Below, piece by piece: positions 1 to 5,288 of a DNA stretch of 5,288 nt. The position numbers were made by a program, and so were the translations under genes. Under the pieces are notes generated by a model that was given only the letters and a program-made list of their open reading frames with translations, was not told where the DNA came from and did no database searches. Origin of the DNA: a virus (lineage: Duplodnaviria; Heunggongvirae; Uroviricota; Caudoviricetes); IMG/VR virus record IMGVR_UViG_2657244940_000001, positions 1 to 5,288 of that record. The stretch is one strand, 5' to 3'. Each line of letters opens with the position of its first letter. Positions within the stretch are counted from its first letter, which is position 1.

Positions 1-31
1 AGCATCGGTCACCACAGCAGCCACTGCTTTG

Positions 32-77
32 GCGGTACCAGTTTGTACACTTGCTTCCGGCTGGTACCGCTCTTTTT
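32..77 (+). terminator. Candidate intrinsic terminator-like hairpin followed by a T-run
   Basis: GCGGTACCAG at 32-41 is the perfect reverse complement of CTGGTACCGC at 61-70 (10-bp stem, 19-nt loop), followed directly by TCTTTTT at 71-77. The loop is larger than in typical rho-independent terminators, so this is tentative. Confidence 0.3.
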
Positions 78-166
78 ACAAAACAGAGAAGAGCATCACC
101 GGACGACGGGCTCATAACCCAATCCACCCGGGCGGCTGCCACCGCAGGTGTTCTTCTCTGTTTTGT
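78..166. repeat. Long-range perfect 15-bp inverted repeat flanking a GC-rich 59-nt spacer (possible leader RNA structure or protein-binding site)
   Basis: ACAAAACAGAGAAGA at 78-92 is the exact reverse complement of TCTTCTCTGTTTTGT at 152-166, checked by hand. It lies upstream of the rdgC-like start at 201. Confidence 0.4.
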
Positions 167-200
167 GGAGAAACTAATATCTTGTGCAGAGGAAAATAGA

Positions 201-1118
201 ATGAAATTACCAAAATTTCGTAACGCAATTGTGTACCGAGCAACATTACCTAGTATACAGGCTATTGAAGGTCATCTTCTCGAACTCCCTTATTCTGAAA
301 TCGGGGAAACAGAACTTTCACGGTCCTCTTTTGTAGAGAATCCTGTCACTGGTGAACTGGTAACTCCGATATCTGGTGGGTACGCAATGGTAATCCGTCA
401 TGATCAGAAAATAATTCCCCGACATGTCGTCATGAAAGAAGCTAATTCTCGAATCCAAACAATCGAAAATATGTCCGGGAATAAATTAAAGCGTGCCGAA
501 CGACTGACCATTATTGATAACGTACGAGTAGATCTATGCAAACAGGCATTTGTTAAGTCTACGCTGATTCTTGCATTGTACAGCACTGATGAGAAATTAT
601 TGGTAATCAACACAACCAATAAAATAATAGCCGGTATGGTATGCGCAATGCTGATTAAGGTTGTCGGTTCAGTGAAAACAGAAACAATCAACATCAGTGA
701 TATCAAGAATGGACTGACTACACGCCTGAATAACTACATCAATGGTGCAGCCAATGCATTTGAAGGATTCACTGTCGGAAATTATATTCAGCTATCACGC
801 TACGCAGATCAAAAGGAAATTATTCGCTACTCAGCTGAGCATGAGTCAATTCAAAGCGAACTGGCCGATAGCCTTAGTAGTAGTTTCACTGCTGATAAAA
901 TGGAGTTATCCGGTTGCGGTGTGACCTTCATTCTTACCGAAAATTTCCATTTTTCGCGCATCAATACTCAATCTCAGACATTTAATGATGAAGATGATAA
1001 AGCATTCCAGTGGCGTCATCAGACTGGCGCTGACCTTTTCCAATTCAGCAAGGTAGTTAATTTGATGTGTGACCTTCTTTCTTACAAAGAAGATAAAAGC
1101 CAAAATCCAACAACTTAA
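201..1118 (+). CDS. rdgC: RdgC-like recombination-associated protein (305 aa)
   Basis: The track ORF 51..1118 is trimmed to ATG 201, which has AGGA at 190-193 about 7 nt upstream. The resulting N-terminus MKLPKFRNAIVYRATLP resembles the N-terminus of E. coli RdgC (MLWFKNLMVYRL, from memory), and 305 aa is close to RdgC length. Not aligned. The frame is also open upstream of 201 to the window edge. Confidence 0.6.
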   Translation: MKLPKFRNAIVYRATLPSIQAIEGHLLELPYSEIGETELSRSSFVENPVTGELVTPISGGYAMVIRHDQKIIPRHVVMKEANSRIQTIENMSGNKLKRAERLTIIDNVRVDLCKQAFVKSTLILALYSTDEKLLVINTTNKIIAGMVCAMLIKVVGSVKTETINISDIKNGLTTRLNNYINGAANAFEGFTVGNYIQLSRYADQKEIIRYSAEHESIQSELADSLSSSFTADKMELSGCGVTFILTENFHFSRINTQSQTFNDEDDKAFQWRHQTGADLFQFSKVVNLMCDLLSYKEDKSQNPTT

Positions 1119-1122
1119 AAAA

Positions 1123-1166
1123 ATTGCAGCAATCATCCCATGTCAAATGGGCTGGATTGCTGCAAT
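1123..1166. promoter_or_regulatory. Pair of inverted near-palindromic 11-mers (ATTGCAGCAAT / ATTGCTGCAAT) in the rdgC-like/HD intergenic region: operator-like or RNA hairpin
   Basis: ATTGCAGCAAT at 1123-1133 and ATTGCTGCAAT at 1156-1166 are exact reverse complements, and each is itself a palindrome apart from the central base. Centres are about 33 bp apart, roughly three helical turns. An inner palindrome CCCAT-GTCAA-ATGGG lies at 1137-1151. A run of A at 1116-1122 precedes the element, so on the minus strand the hairpin would be followed by a T-run. Confidence 0.4.
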
Positions 1167-1208
1167 CAAAATTCAGAGCGGTGCAGCGCATATAACGTGG
1201 AGAACAAA

Positions 1209-1745
1209 ATGTCATTTATTAAAACTTTTTCCGGGAAGCATTTTTATTATGACAAGATAAATAAAGACGACATCGTGATTAACGATATCGCGGTTTCCCT
1301 TTCAAATATCTGCCGCTTTGCCGGTCATCTTTCTCATTTCTACAGCGTCGCCCAACATGCGGTGCTTTGCAGCCAGCTGGTACCGCAGGAATTTGCTTTT
1401 GAAGCATTAATGCATGATGCAACAGAAGCGTATTGCCAGGACATCCCCGCGCCACTGAAACGCCTTCTTCCTGACTATAAACGGATGGAAGAAAAAATAG
1501 ACGCCGTAATCCGTGAGAAATACGGGTTACCTCCTGTTATGAGCACGCCAGTGAAATATGCCGATCTCATTATGCTGGCAACCGAACGTCGCGATCTCGG
1601 GCTTGATGATGGCTCTTTCTGGCCAGTACTGGAAGGTATCCCGGCAACAGAAATGTTCAAAGTTATTCCACTGGCTCCGAGCCATGCCTACGGGATGTTT
1701 ATGGAGCGCTTTAACGAGTTATCGGAGTTACGCACATGCGCATGA
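1209..1745 (+). CDS. HD-domain phosphohydrolase, YfbR/YfdR-type 5'-(deoxy)nucleotidase family (178 aa)
   Basis: The track ORF 1140..1745 is trimmed to ATG 1209, which has GGAG at 1199-1202 6 nt upstream, whereas ATG 1140 has no SD and sits inside the palindromic element. The protein carries an H...HD...D metal-binding signature (AQHAVL ... LMHDATEAYCQDIPAPLKR) that closely resembles the YfbR motif HDASEVLTGDLPTPVKY recalled from memory. 178 aa matches the size of prophage YfdR-type proteins. Confidence 0.75.
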   Translation: MSFIKTFSGKHFYYDKINKDDIVINDIAVSLSNICRFAGHLSHFYSVAQHAVLCSQLVPQEFAFEALMHDATEAYCQDIPAPLKRLLPDYKRMEEKIDAVIREKYGLPPVMSTPVKYADLIMLATERRDLGLDDGSFWPVLEGIPATEMFKVIPLAPSHAYGMFMERFNELSELRTCA

Positions 1746-2347
1746 ATGTTTTCGAAATGGAAGGGTTTCTTCGCGGGAAATGTGTACCACGAGATCTGAA
1801 AGTGAATGAAACAAATGCTGAATATCTGGTGCGTAAATTTGCTGAAGCGGAGGCCAAGATTTTGGCTCTGTCCGAAGACCAACAGAAAGCGATTGAGTCA
1901 ATTAAGCAGGCTGATGCAGCTGTTAAGTTGGCACACGAGAAGTTTTCGGCGCTGGCGGCGGAGAATGCGGGGCTGAAACACGCAATGGCCGTAACTCTTG
2001 AGCATGTGTCGGTCACGGATGCAGGGCAGGCTGGTGTTGCTGCAATGATTATCAACGATGCCCTGCACCACAGCGAAACTCCAGCCACCGATGATTTCCT
2101 GGCTGAAATTCGTGCGGAAGCACGCAACGAGGGGATTAACTATACCGCAAGCCGTCTTGCTGCTGCTTTCAATCACGGATTTATCAATAAGTCTTTACGT
2201 GAAGTTTTCGACGTTACACGCATGATTCTGTCAGCGAAAGAAGAGTTGGCTAATGAACCACACCCGATTGATGGCCTGTCCGGTGAATATGCGGAGAAAT
2301 CCCTAGAAGAATGGGCGGAACAGATTCGCAAAGGAGGCAACCAGTGA
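1736..2347 (+). CDS. Hypothetical phage protein, Ala/Glu-rich, probably partly coiled-coil (203 aa)
   Basis: Complete ORF. ATG 1736 has GGAG at 1724-1727 8 nt upstream, and the alternative ATG 1742 forms an ATGA overlap with the upstream stop at 1743-1745. No family recognised. Confidence 0.6.
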   Translation: MRMNVFEMEGFLRGKCVPRDLKVNETNAEYLVRKFAEAEAKILALSEDQQKAIESIKQADAAVKLAHEKFSALAAENAGLKHAMAVTLEHVSVTDAGQAGVAAMIINDALHHSETPATDDFLAEIRAEARNEGINYTASRLAAAFNHGFINKSLREVFDVTRMILSAKEELANEPHPIDGLSGEYAEKSLEEWAEQIRKGGNQ

Positions 2348-2568
2348 GCGGAAAAAGAATGACTAACAGAGAGCTTGTTGATGCCGCGATTAAGCTTGCT
2401 GGTGATTTTTATTCAATGATGGGGTACGCGCATCGCCCTGGATTCAAATATTGGGAATCACCGCATCCGCAAGAGCAACTGGTATTTCAAATGGCCTGCC
2501 GTGCTTTTGAGGTTATTCGCGGTTCTGATGTGATGGACGCCGTTGCCGACTTGGAGGATGAAGAGTGA
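2344..2568 (+). CDS. Hypothetical small acidic phage protein (74 aa from GTG 2344, or 69 aa if ATG 2359 is used)
   Basis: Lies in the frame of track ORF 2311..2568. GTG 2344 has AGGAGG at 2332-2337 6 nt upstream and overlaps the upstream stop as GTGA. The in-frame ATG 2359 has only a weak SD. The C-terminus is acidic (DLEDEE). Confidence 0.5.
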   Translation: MSGKRMTNRELVDAAIKLAGDFYSMMGYAHRPGFKYWESPHPQEQLVFQMACRAFEVIRGSDVMDAVADLEDEE

Positions 2569-3122
2569 CCCAAATTAACTATCAGGCACTGCGTGAAAAG
2601 GCAGAGAAAGCAACTAAAGGAAGCTACATCGTAGGGCATACATCTGTTAACCAGCACGGCAATTTAACAGGAGTTTTTGTTTGCCAAAAATGGAAAGGAG
2701 AACCCGGTGGCGTGATTGCGGAATGTCATGTTAACTGCCTGATTGAATCAGATGCTCAGGCTTATGCAAACGCTGAATTCATAGCAGAGGCTAACCCGGC
2801 TACCGTGCTGGCACTGCTGGATGAACAGGAAAGAAACCAGCAATACATCAAACGCCGCGACCAGGAGAACGAGGAGATTGCGCTTACGGTTGGGAAGCTG
2901 CGTGTTGAGCTTGAAGCAGAAAAACAGCGGGCAAAAGTTCTATTTATGGAAAATGCTCGGCTTAAGTCAGGCATAGCCGGTCTGATACACCTCGGTATTC
3001 GATATGCAGATGTTGAGGTCATGAAAATTGCTGGAGATGCCCAGCTTTCTACTCCATGCACTGACAGCATCATAAACAGCATTGCAGCAGGCATTTTCAC
3101 CAAAGAGGGGGCAGCACGATGA
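2565..3122 (+). CDS. Ead/Ea22-like family protein (185 aa)
   Basis: GTG start at 2565 overlaps the upstream stop (GTGA), with GGAGG at 2553-2557 7 nt upstream. The first in-frame ATG is far downstream, so the GTG start is needed. The N-terminal QALREKAEKATKG and the internal motif NAEFIAEANPATVLALLDEQE match the signature I recall for lambdoid Ead/Ea22-like proteins, followed by a charged coiled-coil-like segment. Confidence 0.65.
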   Translation: MTQINYQALREKAEKATKGSYIVGHTSVNQHGNLTGVFVCQKWKGEPGGVIAECHVNCLIESDAQAYANAEFIAEANPATVLALLDEQERNQQYIKRRDQENEEIALTVGKLRVELEAEKQRAKVLFMENARLKSGIAGLIHLGIRYADVEVMKIAGDAQLSTPCTDSIINSIAAGIFTKEGAAR

Positions 3123-3304
3123 GAACACTAGAGGTTCGCGCTGAAGACGTAATCCCTGGTGATGTGCTCATAACATCTAAAGGTCAACAATGTGCGGTTA
3201 AATCTTTTTGGATGGAAAATGACAAAGTGACTCTGTTCGGTACGGATGGTTCCGAAACTGATTATGACTACGACGAATTGCTTGTTATTGAGAGAGCTGC
3301 CTAA
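3119..3304 (+). CDS. Hypothetical small phage protein (61 aa)
   Basis: ATG 3119 overlaps the upstream stop (ATGA), with AGAGGGGG at 3104-3110 upstream. Complete ORF, no family recognised. Confidence 0.5.
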   Translation: MRTLEVRAEDVIPGDVLITSKGQQCAVKSFWMENDKVTLFGTDGSETDYDYDELLVIERAA

Positions 3305-3891
3305 TGACCACCTTTACCAAAGAACAGTTAATCTCCCATGCACGCGAAAGCGTTAGTTATCTGGAAAACTTGAAAGGACGTGTTAGCAAAGAAGGTGCGG
3401 ACTGCAAAGTTGTTATTGAGATGGTTGCACGAGATCTAAAACTGGCACGAATTGCACTGGCCTCGCTTGAGGCAAAGCCGGTGGCGTGGAAGGTAACCTT
3501 CACGCAAATTGACCGTGAATATAACACGTTCACTGGTATGTATTCTGACAAAGCAGAAGTCGAACGGTGGGTGCGGCTGCATAAAGCATGTAATTTTCGG
3601 GCAGATATAACACCGCTTTATACCGCCCAGCCAGTGCCGGTAACTCCGGATGCCTGGATAAGCTGTAGTGAGCGAATGCCAGAAATGGGAGAGCGACAAT
3701 GCTATGTGTTAGCTGCTGACTTTAAAAACAACTACCCACCAAACATCCCCAACACTCAGGTCGGCGTATATGGCGACTGGTTTAATGATGGCAAGCCCAC
3801 TTGGGATGACGGTGATGGCGAAGACCTGTATCTCAAGGAGGTAACCCACTGGATGCCGCTGCCAGAACCGCCGCAGGAGGTGAATCAATGA
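3304..3891 (+). CDS. DUF551-domain phage protein (195 aa)
   Basis: ATG 3304 overlaps the upstream TAA (TAATG). The C-terminal region (W-x-C-x-ERMPE ... THWMPLPEPP) matches the signature I recall for the prophage DUF551 family. The N-terminal half is unassigned. Confidence 0.65.
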   Translation: MTTFTKEQLISHARESVSYLENLKGRVSKEGADCKVVIEMVARDLKLARIALASLEAKPVAWKVTFTQIDREYNTFTGMYSDKAEVERWVRLHKACNFRADITPLYTAQPVPVTPDAWISCSERMPEMGERQCYVLAADFKNNYPPNIPNTQVGVYGDWFNDGKPTWDDGDGEDLYLKEVTHWMPLPEPPQEVNQ

Positions 3892-3971
3892 GCTGGCCTG
3901 ATGCAATCGTAACTCTGGGGATGGTATTCGCAGTAGCGTTTGTTGTGTACTCGATTTGTCGATGGGGATAA
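3888..3971 (+). CDS. Small hydrophobic single-pass membrane peptide (27 aa: MSWPDAIVTLGMVFAVAFVVYSICRWG), not in the ORF track
   Basis: ATG 3888 overlaps the upstream stop (ATGA 3888-3891), with AGGAGG at 3875-3880 7 nt upstream. Hand translation runs to TAA at 3969-3971 and contains an 18-residue hydrophobic stretch followed by R-W-G. Confidence 0.45.
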   Translation: MSWPDAIVTLGMVFAVAFVVYSICRWG

Positions 3972-3975
3972 CCAC

Positions 3976-4218
3976 ATGTTCGCTTTGATTCAACGCGGGC
4001 AGATATACACCGATAGTGCTGGCTACCCGATAAAAATTGTTCACTGCATAAACAACACTGTGTTGTACAGAAGAATGGATGGGCGAACACAGTCAGTAAA
4101 AATAAACGATTTCAATGAACTGTTTGAACGGATTGATCACCAGGAATACCGACAAATTCTGGCAGAAACAGAGCAGGAAGCTCATCTGAAAAAATTACGG
4201 GCCATGAAAAGGAAGTAA
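3976..4218 (+). CDS. Hypothetical small phage protein, possibly DUF4222-like (80 aa)
   Basis: The track ORF 3940..4218 is trimmed to ATG 3976, which has GGGGA at 3964-3968 upstream, because the 3940 start would overlap the preceding small ORF without an SD. The DUF4222 resemblance is weak recall only. Confidence 0.5.
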   Translation: MFALIQRGQIYTDSAGYPIKIVHCINNTVLYRRMDGRTQSVKINDFNELFERIDHQEYRQILAETEQEAHLKKLRAMKRK

Positions 4219-4221
4219 ACA

Positions 4222-4368
4222 ATGAATAAAGCATTTGAACAATGGGTCCACCAGCGTTACGGCAATCGCTATGACCTGACACGAGATGTTGACGGTTTCT
4301 ACTGTCGTGAAATTGTGAAACGAATGTTTGAAGTGTGGTGCCACTGCCGTGGGCTGAGTGTTGTGTGA
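4222..4368 (+). CDS. Small Cys/His-containing protein (48 aa: MNKAFEQWVHQRYGNRYDLTRDVDGFYCREIVKRMFEVWCHCRGLSVV), not in the ORF track
   Basis: ATG 4222 lies 4 nt after the upstream stop, with AAGGAAG at 4210-4215 upstream. Hand translation runs to TGA at 4366-4368. It fills the gap before the xis-like gene. Residues C28, C40, H41 and C42 could form a small metal-binding site (speculative). Confidence 0.4.
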   Translation: MNKAFEQWVHQRYGNRYDLTRDVDGFYCREIVKRMFEVWCHCRGLSVV

Positions 4369-4376
4369 GGTAATGC

Positions 4377-4613
4377 ATGGGCAATGTGATTCAACTGGCT
4401 CCCAATGAATGGGTTTGTGAAAGCGTTCTAATCGCAATTACCGGGCTCAAACCAGGCACAATTCTTCGGGCCCGGAAAGAATGCTGGATGGTTGGAAGAG
4501 AGTATATTCACGTATCACCAGACGGTAATCCAAAGCCTTCCAGTGAATGTATGTATAACAGAAAAGCAATAGATGCCTGGGTCGCTTCAATGAAAAACAA
4601 ACAACCTGGGTGA
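4377..4613 (+). CDS. xis: Excisionase-like / AlpA-family HTH DNA-binding protein (78 aa)
   Basis: ATG 4377 has GAGG at 4367-4370 6 nt upstream. It sits immediately upstream of the integrase in the same orientation. The segment IAITGLKPGTILRARKE resembles the AlpA/excisionase HTH motif (ITGLSRSTIYR), and the NEW...W pattern resembles putative prophage excisionases (recall). Confidence 0.55.
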   Translation: MGNVIQLAPNEWVCESVLIAITGLKPGTILRARKECWMVGREYIHVSPDGNPKPSSECMYNRKAIDAWVASMKNKQPG

Positions 4614-4668
4614 TTTAATATCATGAAATATGTAAGCTCGTATCGCTCTTGGGCGTCTGGAGGTATCG

Positions 4669-5288
4669 ATGGATAAAGTCAAATATCCAACAGGCGTCGA
4701 AAACCACGGCGGCACATTACGCATCTGGTTTAATTTTAAAGGTAAACGTGTCAGGGAAAATCTTGGTGTCCCTGACACTGCCAAGAACAGGAAGATCGCC
4801 GGGGAACTGCGGACATCAGTATGTTTTGCCATCCGCACAGGAAGCTTTGATTATGCTGCACAGTTCCCTGACTCCCCCAACCTTCAGGCTTTTGGGGTAA
4901 GTAAAAAAGAAATTACGGTGAAGGAACTTGAAGAAAAGTGGCTGGATCTGAAACGAATGGAAATCTCTGCAAATGCATTCAATCGCTATGAATCCGTTGC
5001 AAGAACGATGGTTTCGAAAATTGGAGGCAGTAGACTGGTGTCATCGGTAACCAAAGAGGAATTGCTGTATATCAGGAAAGATTTGCTAACCGGGTATCAG
5101 AATTCAACGAAAAACAAAGCAGCAGCAAAAGGACGGAGCGTCGTTACTGTAAATTATTACATGACGACAATCGCTGGAATGTTTCAGTTTGCTGCAGATC
5201 ACGGTTACTTAGAAGCAAATCCCTTTCAGGGAATTAAGCCTCTTAAAAGAGCCAGGGCAGAGCCAGATCCGCTAACTCGTGACGAATT
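4669..5288 (+). CDS. int: Tyrosine-type phage integrase, N-terminal ~206 aa (partial, continues past the window end)
   Basis: ATG 4669 has GGAGG at 4659-4663 5 nt upstream. I translated the frame by hand to position 5286 with no stop (MDKVKYPTGVENHGGTLRIWFNFKGKRVRENLGV...). This N-terminal pattern resembles the arm-binding N-termini of enterobacterial cryptic-prophage integrases (recall). It is missing from the ORF track because no stop falls inside the window. Confidence 0.8.
   Translation, partial: MDKVKYPTGVENHGGTLRIWFNFKGKRVRENLGVPDTAKNRKIAGELRTSVCFAIRTGSFDYAAQFPDSPNLQAFGVSKKEITVKELEEKWLDLKRMEISANAFNRYESVARTMVSKIGGSRLVSSVTKEELLYIRKDLLTGYQNSTKNKAAAKGRSVVTVNYYMTTIAGMFQFAADHGYLEANPFQGIKPLKRARAEPDPLTRDE

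Follow-up and report, generated by a model that had tools for sequence, protein, structure and literature searches.

Gene content of the early region

The window analyzed here is a stretch of 5,288 nucleotides of viral DNA (positions 1 to 5,288 of IMG/VR record IMGVR_UViG_2657244940_000001), and this study concerns the gene near its 5' end, a homolog of rdgC. Annotation with Pfam, PHROG, and the Prokaryotic Genome Annotation Pipeline (PGAP) identifies the window as the leftward early region of a lambdoid Escherichia coli prophage. The operon opens with rdgC and yfdR, continues with Ead/Ea22, DUF551, and DUF4222 genes among which lie four small genes of unknown function, and ends with an excisionase gene followed by the 5' part of a tyrosine integrase gene (xis-int). 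The early-left operon location proposed in an earlier note on this DNA therefore agrees with the annotation.

201–1118, plus strand: coding sequence of the rdgC homolog, from the ATG at 201 to the TAA at 1116–1118 (305 amino acids)

The gene product is identical or nearly identical to the RefSeq protein WP_000775327.1, and PGAP names it 'recombination-associated protein RdgC'. A Shine-Dalgarno sequence, GAGGA, lies at 189–193, 7 nt 5' of the ATG. A longer in-frame open reading frame (ORF) starting at TTG 51 (355 amino acids) was rejected because homologs of the product all begin at MKL and because positions 1–177 belong to a non-coding leader that also occurs in phages with another first gene.

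The gene encodes a full-length, divergent RdgC protein

Profile searches place the product in the RdgC family. Pfam PF04381 (RdgC) matched with E = 5e-31 and 108.5 bits (cut-off 25), aligning residues 6–280 with profile positions 3–278 of 298, and PHROG 724 ('exonuclease recombination-associated') matched with E = 1.7e-76 over residues 1–304 (profile positions 1–307 of 312). The structure of E. coli RdgC (2OWL) was matched as well (E = 1.4e-9). The three-domain fold of the family, comprising a center, a two-helix tip or finger, and a base, is present, and an AlphaFold2 monomer model had a predicted local distance difference test score of 89 and a predicted template modeling score of 0.83. These data establish the ORF as a full-length RdgC member with center, finger, and base domains, belonging to a divergent clade that is seen here in Enterobacterales lambdoid prophage and viral contexts. 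The identification of a phage-borne RdgC homolog in the earlier note is thus confirmed by profile matches over most of the protein's length. By sequence, the product is classed as a member of the RdgC family at the Pfam level, not as a cellular RdgC equivalog. The family is under strong purifying selection, with ratios of nonsynonymous to synonymous substitution rates of 0.04–0.09.

To locate functional residues, positions whose importance in E. coli or Pseudomonas aeruginosa RdgC has been established by experiment were mapped through a HMMER alignment and scored in 40 homologs. The electropositive fingertip of E. coli RdgC (R97, K98, K100, and K101) is required for loading onto circular DNA. 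Its counterparts here are N94, K95, K97, and R98, with R101 in addition, so the fingertip is basic. K95, K97, and R98 (E. coli K98, K100, and K101) are Lys or Arg in 25 to 39 of the 40 homologs, and the gate phenylalanine, F117 (E. coli F120), is Phe or Leu in all 40. Further residues that are retained, and mostly kept across the 40 homologs, include K119 (R122), R7 (R4), R66, K70, P73, R209, and R253. Among the basic residues lining the central hole of the P. aeruginosa protein (R4, K70, R81, R122, K146, R198, R208, and R252), four have directly aligned counterparts (R7, K119, R209, and R253), two are offset by 1–2 positions (K141 and R200), and two are replaced (K70 by H67 and R81 by M78).

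Homologs of rdgC occur in 185 deposited phage records, including those of P1/P7 HrdC. The window protein is a direct member of PHROG 724; besides P1/P7 HrdC, homologs are known from phages of Vibrio, Pseudomonas, Klebsiella, Salmonella, and Yersinia. Klebsiella phages carry the nearest deposited phage genes, which are 66–67% identical; P1 HrdC is only 22% identical, and the E. coli rdgC allele was not found in the deposited phage collection. The gene also differs from these homologs in its predicted place as first gene of a lambdoid operon transcribed from the leftward early promoter (PL).

In some distant homologs of about 376 amino acids and 37–38% identity (P0111, P0113, P0116, and P0119), RdgC is joined at its C terminus to an FtsK-gamma winged-helix domain (PF09397). 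Such a fusion would place an additional, sequence-reading DNA-binding module on the ring.

An rdgC cassette occupies the slot of yfdP-yfdQ

We compared the window with the phages mEp460, Lys8385Vzw, and Stx2a_WGPS2. Homology runs at 96–98% through positions 1–177, stops at 177, and restarts at 1167–1170 (94–98%). Between these junctions the three phages carry yfdP and yfdQ (DUF2303), not rdgC. The rdgC cassette is thus an AT-rich segment of ~990 bp (178–1168) in the slot after the leader and before yfdR.

178–200, plus strand: 5' junction of the cassette and ribosome-binding site, TGCAGAGGA, with GAGGA at 189–193, placed by junction mapping
1123–1166, plus strand: 3' hairpin with a 12-bp outer and a 5-bp inner stem (fold z = -3.7), immediately preceded by A7
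1167–1208, plus strand: intergenic stretch common to yfdQ-type phages; contains GGAGA, the ribosome-binding site of yfdR, and a small GCGGTGCAGCGC hairpin
1209–1745, plus strand: yfdR, the next gene after rdgC, 178 amino acids, HD-domain 5'-deoxynucleotidase family (PHROG 318, E = 2e-109; PGAP)

The cassette brings its own ribosome-binding site, within just 23 nt 5' of the start codon, and a 3' hairpin. The junction sequence TGCAGAGGA is invariant in all rdgC classes. At the other end, the hairpin stops where homology to yfdQ-type phages resumes, and its 3' arm, ATGGGTTGGGTTGCTGCA, is kept in every rdgC class, including those in which the 5' arm varies. Possibly the hairpin serves module exchange as a boundary or linker. 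It lacks a U-tract on the plus strand; the A-run that precedes it would make it a terminator for minus-strand (antisense) transcripts.

The two contents of this slot differ greatly in frequency. Among 5426 complete E. coli genomes, the rdgC cassette was present in 24 (0.4%) and yfdP-yfdQ in 2723, making the latter ~100 times commoner. Since rdgC replaces yfdP-yfdQ in the same slot rather than being inserted between adjacent genes, the junctions indicate an allelic replacement within a mosaic operon.

This arrangement bears on one possible function, a takeover of host replication in which RdgC would substitute for YfdP/YfdQ and, with YfdR, block initiation on the host chromosome or coat the nucleoid during early lytic growth. 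The replacement of yfdP-yfdQ is exact and lies directly 5' of yfdR, and yfdR follows rdgC in 29/29 loci of the classes with 85–100% identity. K-12 YfdR binds domain I of DnaA, and multicopy yfdQ and yfdR together with yfdS or yfdT inhibit initiation at oriC (PMC4776307); moreover, E. coli RdgC is nucleoid-associated. However, RdgC and YfdQ are unrelated in sequence (hhalign probability 0.1%), and the same score dismissed YfdQ as a hidden relative of RdgC or RexA. The linkage to yfdR is also not obligatory, since ~40/51 loci of the 66–70% class have other genes (a small ORF and a ParB-like gene) after rdgC and no yfdR there. We consider a takeover role unlikely.

In Klebsiella-type loci (L047 4977–6091; L085 28409–30697), rdgC is followed by a small ORF and a gene whose product resembles ParB/Spo0J; L085, a complete Klebsiella phage, additionally has a gene for a DGQHR (DndB-like) protein there. 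With such genes standing in the place of yfdR, rdgC appears to be a constant first gene before variable genes of DNA transactions.

Base composition and the moron proposal

The earlier note had described the gene as AT-richer than its neighbors and as a separately acquired moron. The first part stands, with a smaller contrast than proposed. The GC content of rdgC is 39.9% (35.9% at third codon positions), compared with 46.6% for yfdR, 49.3, 49.2, and 47.7% for the following genes, and 47.0% for the rest of the window (chi-square p = 1.7e-4 against 1209–5288). The gap is therefore ~7 points, not 13. The two 60-nt hand counts behind the larger figure were exact on recount (35.0% and 48.3%) but exaggerate the contrast. 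GC content varies across the region: the best two-breakpoint low-GC segment is ~151–1310 (39.1% vs 47.6%), which reaches into the 5' end of yfdR, and two small neighboring genes are low as well (orf61, 42.5%; DUF4222, 41.2%).

Low GC relative to the flanks, the feature that favors a moron, recurs in this gene and its orthologs in other hosts (39.8 vs 47.4%, 45.1 vs 48.7%, and 47.3 vs 50.0%), indicating a trait of the family. A lysogenic-conversion moron would be an autonomously expressed accessory gene acquired separately for the benefit of the host. No promoter-like site was found in the 23 nt of cassette 5' of the rdgC start, and no plus-strand terminator in the cassette; promoter-like sites inside it, at 600 and 760, are at or below the number expected by chance. 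Genes were replaced rather than separated by an insertion, and the position is downstream of a predicted repressor-controlled promoter. Atypical base composition is the only one of four defining features of a moron that fits. We regard this explanation as very improbable, and the moron claim is not upheld.

rdgC is predicted to be the first gene of the PL transcript

The interval between cI and rdgC was read in three loci with differing immunity regions: an E. coli SW070917 prophage (L001), an IMG/VR contig in which rdgC and its 5' flank are identical to the window (L005), and a locus of the type of the 66–67%-identical Klebsiella phages, with an rdgC that is 67% identical (L047). The predicted order is the same in all three: cI, an intrinsic terminator, operators and a promoter, a leader of ~600 nt, and rdgC. 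The terminator is predicted ~10–20 nt after the S24-type cI gene (L001 11513–11530; L005 2560–2577, followed by T7; L047 3305–3322, followed by T8). Between cI and rdgC lie inverted-repeat putative operators that match in type the ones located between cI and cro. Their motif in L001, TTGC-N7-GCAA, occurs at 5 sites in 29 kb against 1.1 expected, with 3/5 flanking cI, and in L047 palindromes of the TGCGT-N3-ACGCA type are found on either side of cI. A predicted sigma-70 promoter overlaps the operators. That of L005 (TTGACA-16-CATAAT) agrees with the consensus at 11/12 positions and is the best in the region; in L001 and L047, TTGCAT or TTGCGT is separated from TATCTT by a 17-nt spacer. No promoter-like site was found from the predicted PL down to rdgC.

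The terminator after cI and the operators and promoter before the leader lead us to predict that rdgC is the promoter-proximal gene of a repressor-controlled PL, in the place held by N in lambda, and that it is not a passenger of the cI transcript.

A different arrangement has been considered for related genes. A recent survey tentatively suggested that RdgC homologs left of cI are co-transcribed with cI and have a RexA-like role (PMC12315714; Genome Res 2025); the protein would then be made in the lysogen and act in superinfection exclusion or in biasing the choice between lysis and lysogeny. The homologs described there, lying 'just left of cI' in a few lambdoids without a canonical Rec module, share gene class and map position with the gene studied here, and lambda RexA (8TWQ) is likewise a non-specific DNA binder encoded beside cI. 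In the loci read here, however, a predicted terminator, operators, and promoter in three immunity types, and a ~600-nt leader with another terminator-like hairpin, intervene between cI and rdgC. Lambda rexA-rexB lies between cI and the leftward operator and promoter (OL/PL), on the cI side, and rexA has rexB as its partner. By comparison, nothing lies between cI and the putative OL/PL in L001, L005, or L047, and rdgC is followed by yfdR or a ParB-like cluster, with no RexB-like partner. RexA also lacks the finger domain and has no detectable profile similarity to the product (hhalign probability 0.1%), whose fold is that of RdgC proper. Neither a sequence or fold closer to RexA nor a location on a cI-rexA-rexB transcript was found, and a RexA-like role thus seems quite unlikely.

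A structured leader precedes the gene

The window begins within the predicted PL leader, which contains two hairpins.

1–177, plus strand: 3' end of the PL leader (full leader ~600 nt, starting upstream of the window)
31–77, plus strand: hairpin H1, a GC-rich 13-bp stem (31–71) followed by T5 (73–77)
73–171, plus strand: hairpin H2, a 25-bp outer stem around a three-way junction

Among phage records, 177 contain the leader; their hosts include Escherichia, Klebsiella, and Salmonella. Because variants of the leader differ by indels of 1, 4, 7, and 8 nt, it is most likely an untranslated sequence. Searches of Rfam gave no match for the leader or flanks at E <= 1.

The double hairpin at 31–171 has a fold z of -6.1 relative to shuffled sequence (fold window 20–200). 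In an alignment of 22 diverged sequences, 12/49 pairs of H1 and H2 show compensatory changes, with almost none broken, and H1 itself has compensatory changes at 5/11 stem pairs. The outer stem of H2 is kept even in leader classes with an unrelated interior. Together with the 3' hairpin at 1123–1166, these results bear out the earlier suggestion of structured non-coding elements on both sides of the gene. H1 looks like an intrinsic terminator between PL and rdgC; a simple terminator scan missed it because its loop exceeds 8 nt. The 3' arm of H2, TG(T/C)TCTT..GTT(T/G)TGTGGAGA (here UGCUCUU..GUUGUG), resembles boxA. By analogy with the lambda N leader, H1 and H2 could act as a terminator combined with an element for RNase III or attenuation. 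Since the two hairpins (L001 12031–12171) precede either rdgC or yfdP, they are part of the operon leader and not of the cassette.

Further upstream, a core of ~260 nt just 3' of the predicted PL (L001 11607–11900) is near-invariant among E. coli leader variants with swapped flanks. Homologs of the core were found in L027, L042, L054, L064, L070, and L073, and leaders of the Klebsiella and Citrobacter types gave nhmmer matches to it (E = 1e-14 to 1e-7, with 1e-58 reached after an iteration). The core has no established conserved ORF, no Rfam family, and no similarity to the HK022 put region. Because these phages lack an N gene, the core is a candidate cis-acting antitermination or regulatory RNA.

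Several other features of the leader were considered and set aside. A blastn comparison of two leader types with the HK022 immunity/PL region gave chance matches only, although this is a weak test for put, which is short and defined by structure. A minus-strand ORF of 122 amino acids, annotated in mEp460, has truncated or altered ends in variants and an implausible composition, and is probably spurious. One minus-strand ORF across the ~260-nt core stays open in E. coli variants and is probably spurious. In the interior of H2, the 13 nt GGGCTCATAACCC (108–120) match the anticodon stem-loop of the E. coli initiator tRNA at every position. ARAGORN found no tRNA, and the loop varies among relatives (CCCAUCA, CUCAUUC, and CCCACCA), so a tRNA or tRNA remnant was rejected and the identity is probably a coincidence.

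The end of the leader carries a further motif, GGAGAAACTAA (167–177), which recurs in the rightward operon directly before the start codons of three genes, Rha, KilA-N, and Q (L001 9898–9912, 5215–5227, and 3387–3399, minus strand). The recurrence suggests a ribosome-binding-site or junction motif common to these places. A leader paralog in the rightward (PR) operon was rejected, as only this ribosome-binding-site motif of 13–15 nt recurs.

The phage lacks a recombinase and its relatives are rich in Chi

Pfam and PHROG searches found no recombinase, exonuclease, or RecBCD inhibitor among the window proteins, and no recombinase was found in the Klebsiella phage ST101-KPC2phi6.3. By gene content, the window phage fits the 'no Rec module' group of lambdoids as PMC12315714 uses the term. 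Such Rec-less, Chi-rich phages make up about one fifth of the lambdoid phages surveyed and are reported to depend on host RecBCD recombination (PMC12315714).

Chi octamers are abundant in the rdgC-bearing phages. The L001 prophage has 13 in the 17.9 kb available (0.73 per kb), and the complete Klebsiella phage L085 (1–35530), which carries an rdgC ortholog and lacks annotated recombination genes, has 16, all in one orientation (16 vs 0). Densities of 0.45–0.73 per kb are 2- to 3-fold over the E. coli average of 0.217 per kb, and lambda has none (PMC12315714). Over 639 kb of rdgC-bearing viral contigs (L005–L084), orientation is 272 vs 30, a descriptive count since the loci are interrelated. 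The window itself contains a single Chi (4248, minus strand). P1 depends on host RecA and RecBCD, is Chi-rich, and carries the RdgC homolog HrdC.

This context invites the idea that the ring aids RecBCD-Chi-RecA recombination, or shields phage DNA, much as RdgC plays a positive part in pilin variation in Neisseria. The Rec-less, Chi-rich setting (PMC12315714) and the pairing of the same host dependence and Chi richness with HrdC in P1 are consistent with such a role. On the other hand, phages of the yfdP/Q type belong to the same Rec-less class and do without RdgC, no biochemical example of RdgC stimulating RecBCD or RecA was found, and the Chi counts come from many related loci that are not independent. 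A pro-recombination or protective function is therefore possible but improbable. A more specific version would make the phage RdgC clade, P1 HrdC included, an accessory of RecBCD-Chi-RecA in recombinase-less phages and not a RecA antagonist. Its remodeled base interface would suit phage replication or recombination intermediates, and its expression would be gated by an N-independent, terminator-containing leader of ~600 nt that replaces N and nutL. We think this rather unlikely.

A proposed role in tuning host RecA

Cellular RdgC forms a ring dimer that loads onto double-stranded DNA through a basic finger and grips it non-specifically, and the ring on duplex DNA limits the access of RecA filaments, especially those loaded by RecFOR (Drees 2006; Briggs 2010; Ha 2007). 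By analogy, we propose that the phage protein would form a similar ring dimer, load through its basic finger, grip duplex DNA non-specifically, and limit RecA filament access to it. The gene would be silent in the lysogen and expressed early after induction or infection, when transcription from PL would have to get past the conserved terminator-like hairpin H1 to reach rdgC. Most likely, the protein would serve early in lytic growth to tune the RecA-dependent transactions of the host on phage or host DNA undergoing replication.

We favor tuning over a shutdown of RecA because these phages appear to need host RecBCD-Chi-RecA (PMC12315714), and because P1 combines the same dependence with HrdC while hrdC is dispensable. 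The DNA-binding part of this putative mechanism is based on the fold and the conserved residues. Antagonism of RecA would follow by inference from cellular RdgC. Taken as a whole, a RdgC ring that is made early from PL and tunes host RecA is our best explanation, and we give it about an even chance of being correct.

Several observations weigh against this explanation. The Rec-less, Chi-rich context cuts against simple RecA antagonism, as strong inhibition would harm a phage that needs host RecA. Divergence from the cellular protein is considerable: although the product shares with E. coli RdgC (2OWL) and P. aeruginosa RdgC (2OWY) the basic fingertip, the gate phenylalanine, and several DNA-contacting basic residues, identity to E. 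coli RdgC is only 17–19%. Scores against the NCBIfam subfamily and equivalog models (NF001460, NF001462, and related models) reach 91 bits at best against a cut-off of 227, and the score with the E. coli-type model is 45 bits (cut-off 501). The gate residue R118 of E. coli corresponds to Q115, a position that is Gln, Thr, or Lys across the family. In vivo, E. coli RdgC requires the hydrogen-bond network of the horseshoe interface (Q212, H222, and K227); here H214, S224, and F229 stand in its place, and only the glutamate is kept (E218 to E220), in a region where the alignment is weak and the mapping approximate. With this network and R118 replaced, the dimer geometry and tight binding are putative here. 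The promoter, operators, and terminators are consensus predictions. Finally, our literature search found no experimental paper on the function of a phage RdgC, and the sole functional datum found is that P1 hrdC is non-essential.

Cellular rdgC is a growth-phase-regulated housekeeping gene, in contrast to the prophage-encoded gene studied here, with its predicted repressor control. None of the 10 window proteins matched PADLOC, and membership in a defense system was rejected.

The gene itself was already known: its RefSeq annotation is correct and its map position is published. Our analysis adds that the product is RdgC proper rather than RexA-like, that its gene is a predicted PL gene and a rare allelic alternative to yfdP-yfdQ with defined cassette boundaries, that the horseshoe interface is remodeled, and that the context is Rec-less and Chi-rich. 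If phage RdgC does tune host RecA, the gene would offer a simple genetic means of studying how temperate phages that are Chi-rich and lack a recombinase make use of host recombination, and would bear on the interplay of induction with the SOS response.

Downstream genes and the prophage end

From yfdR through the DUF551 gene (to 3891), start and stop codons overlap or abut, which suggests translational coupling along this part of the operon. In L001 (16612–18335), the integrase gene overlaps a truncated DUF72 gene, and this overlap is probably the attachment site. Directly beyond it, a serine recombinase gene and tail genes belong to another element, suggesting tandem prophages in L001.

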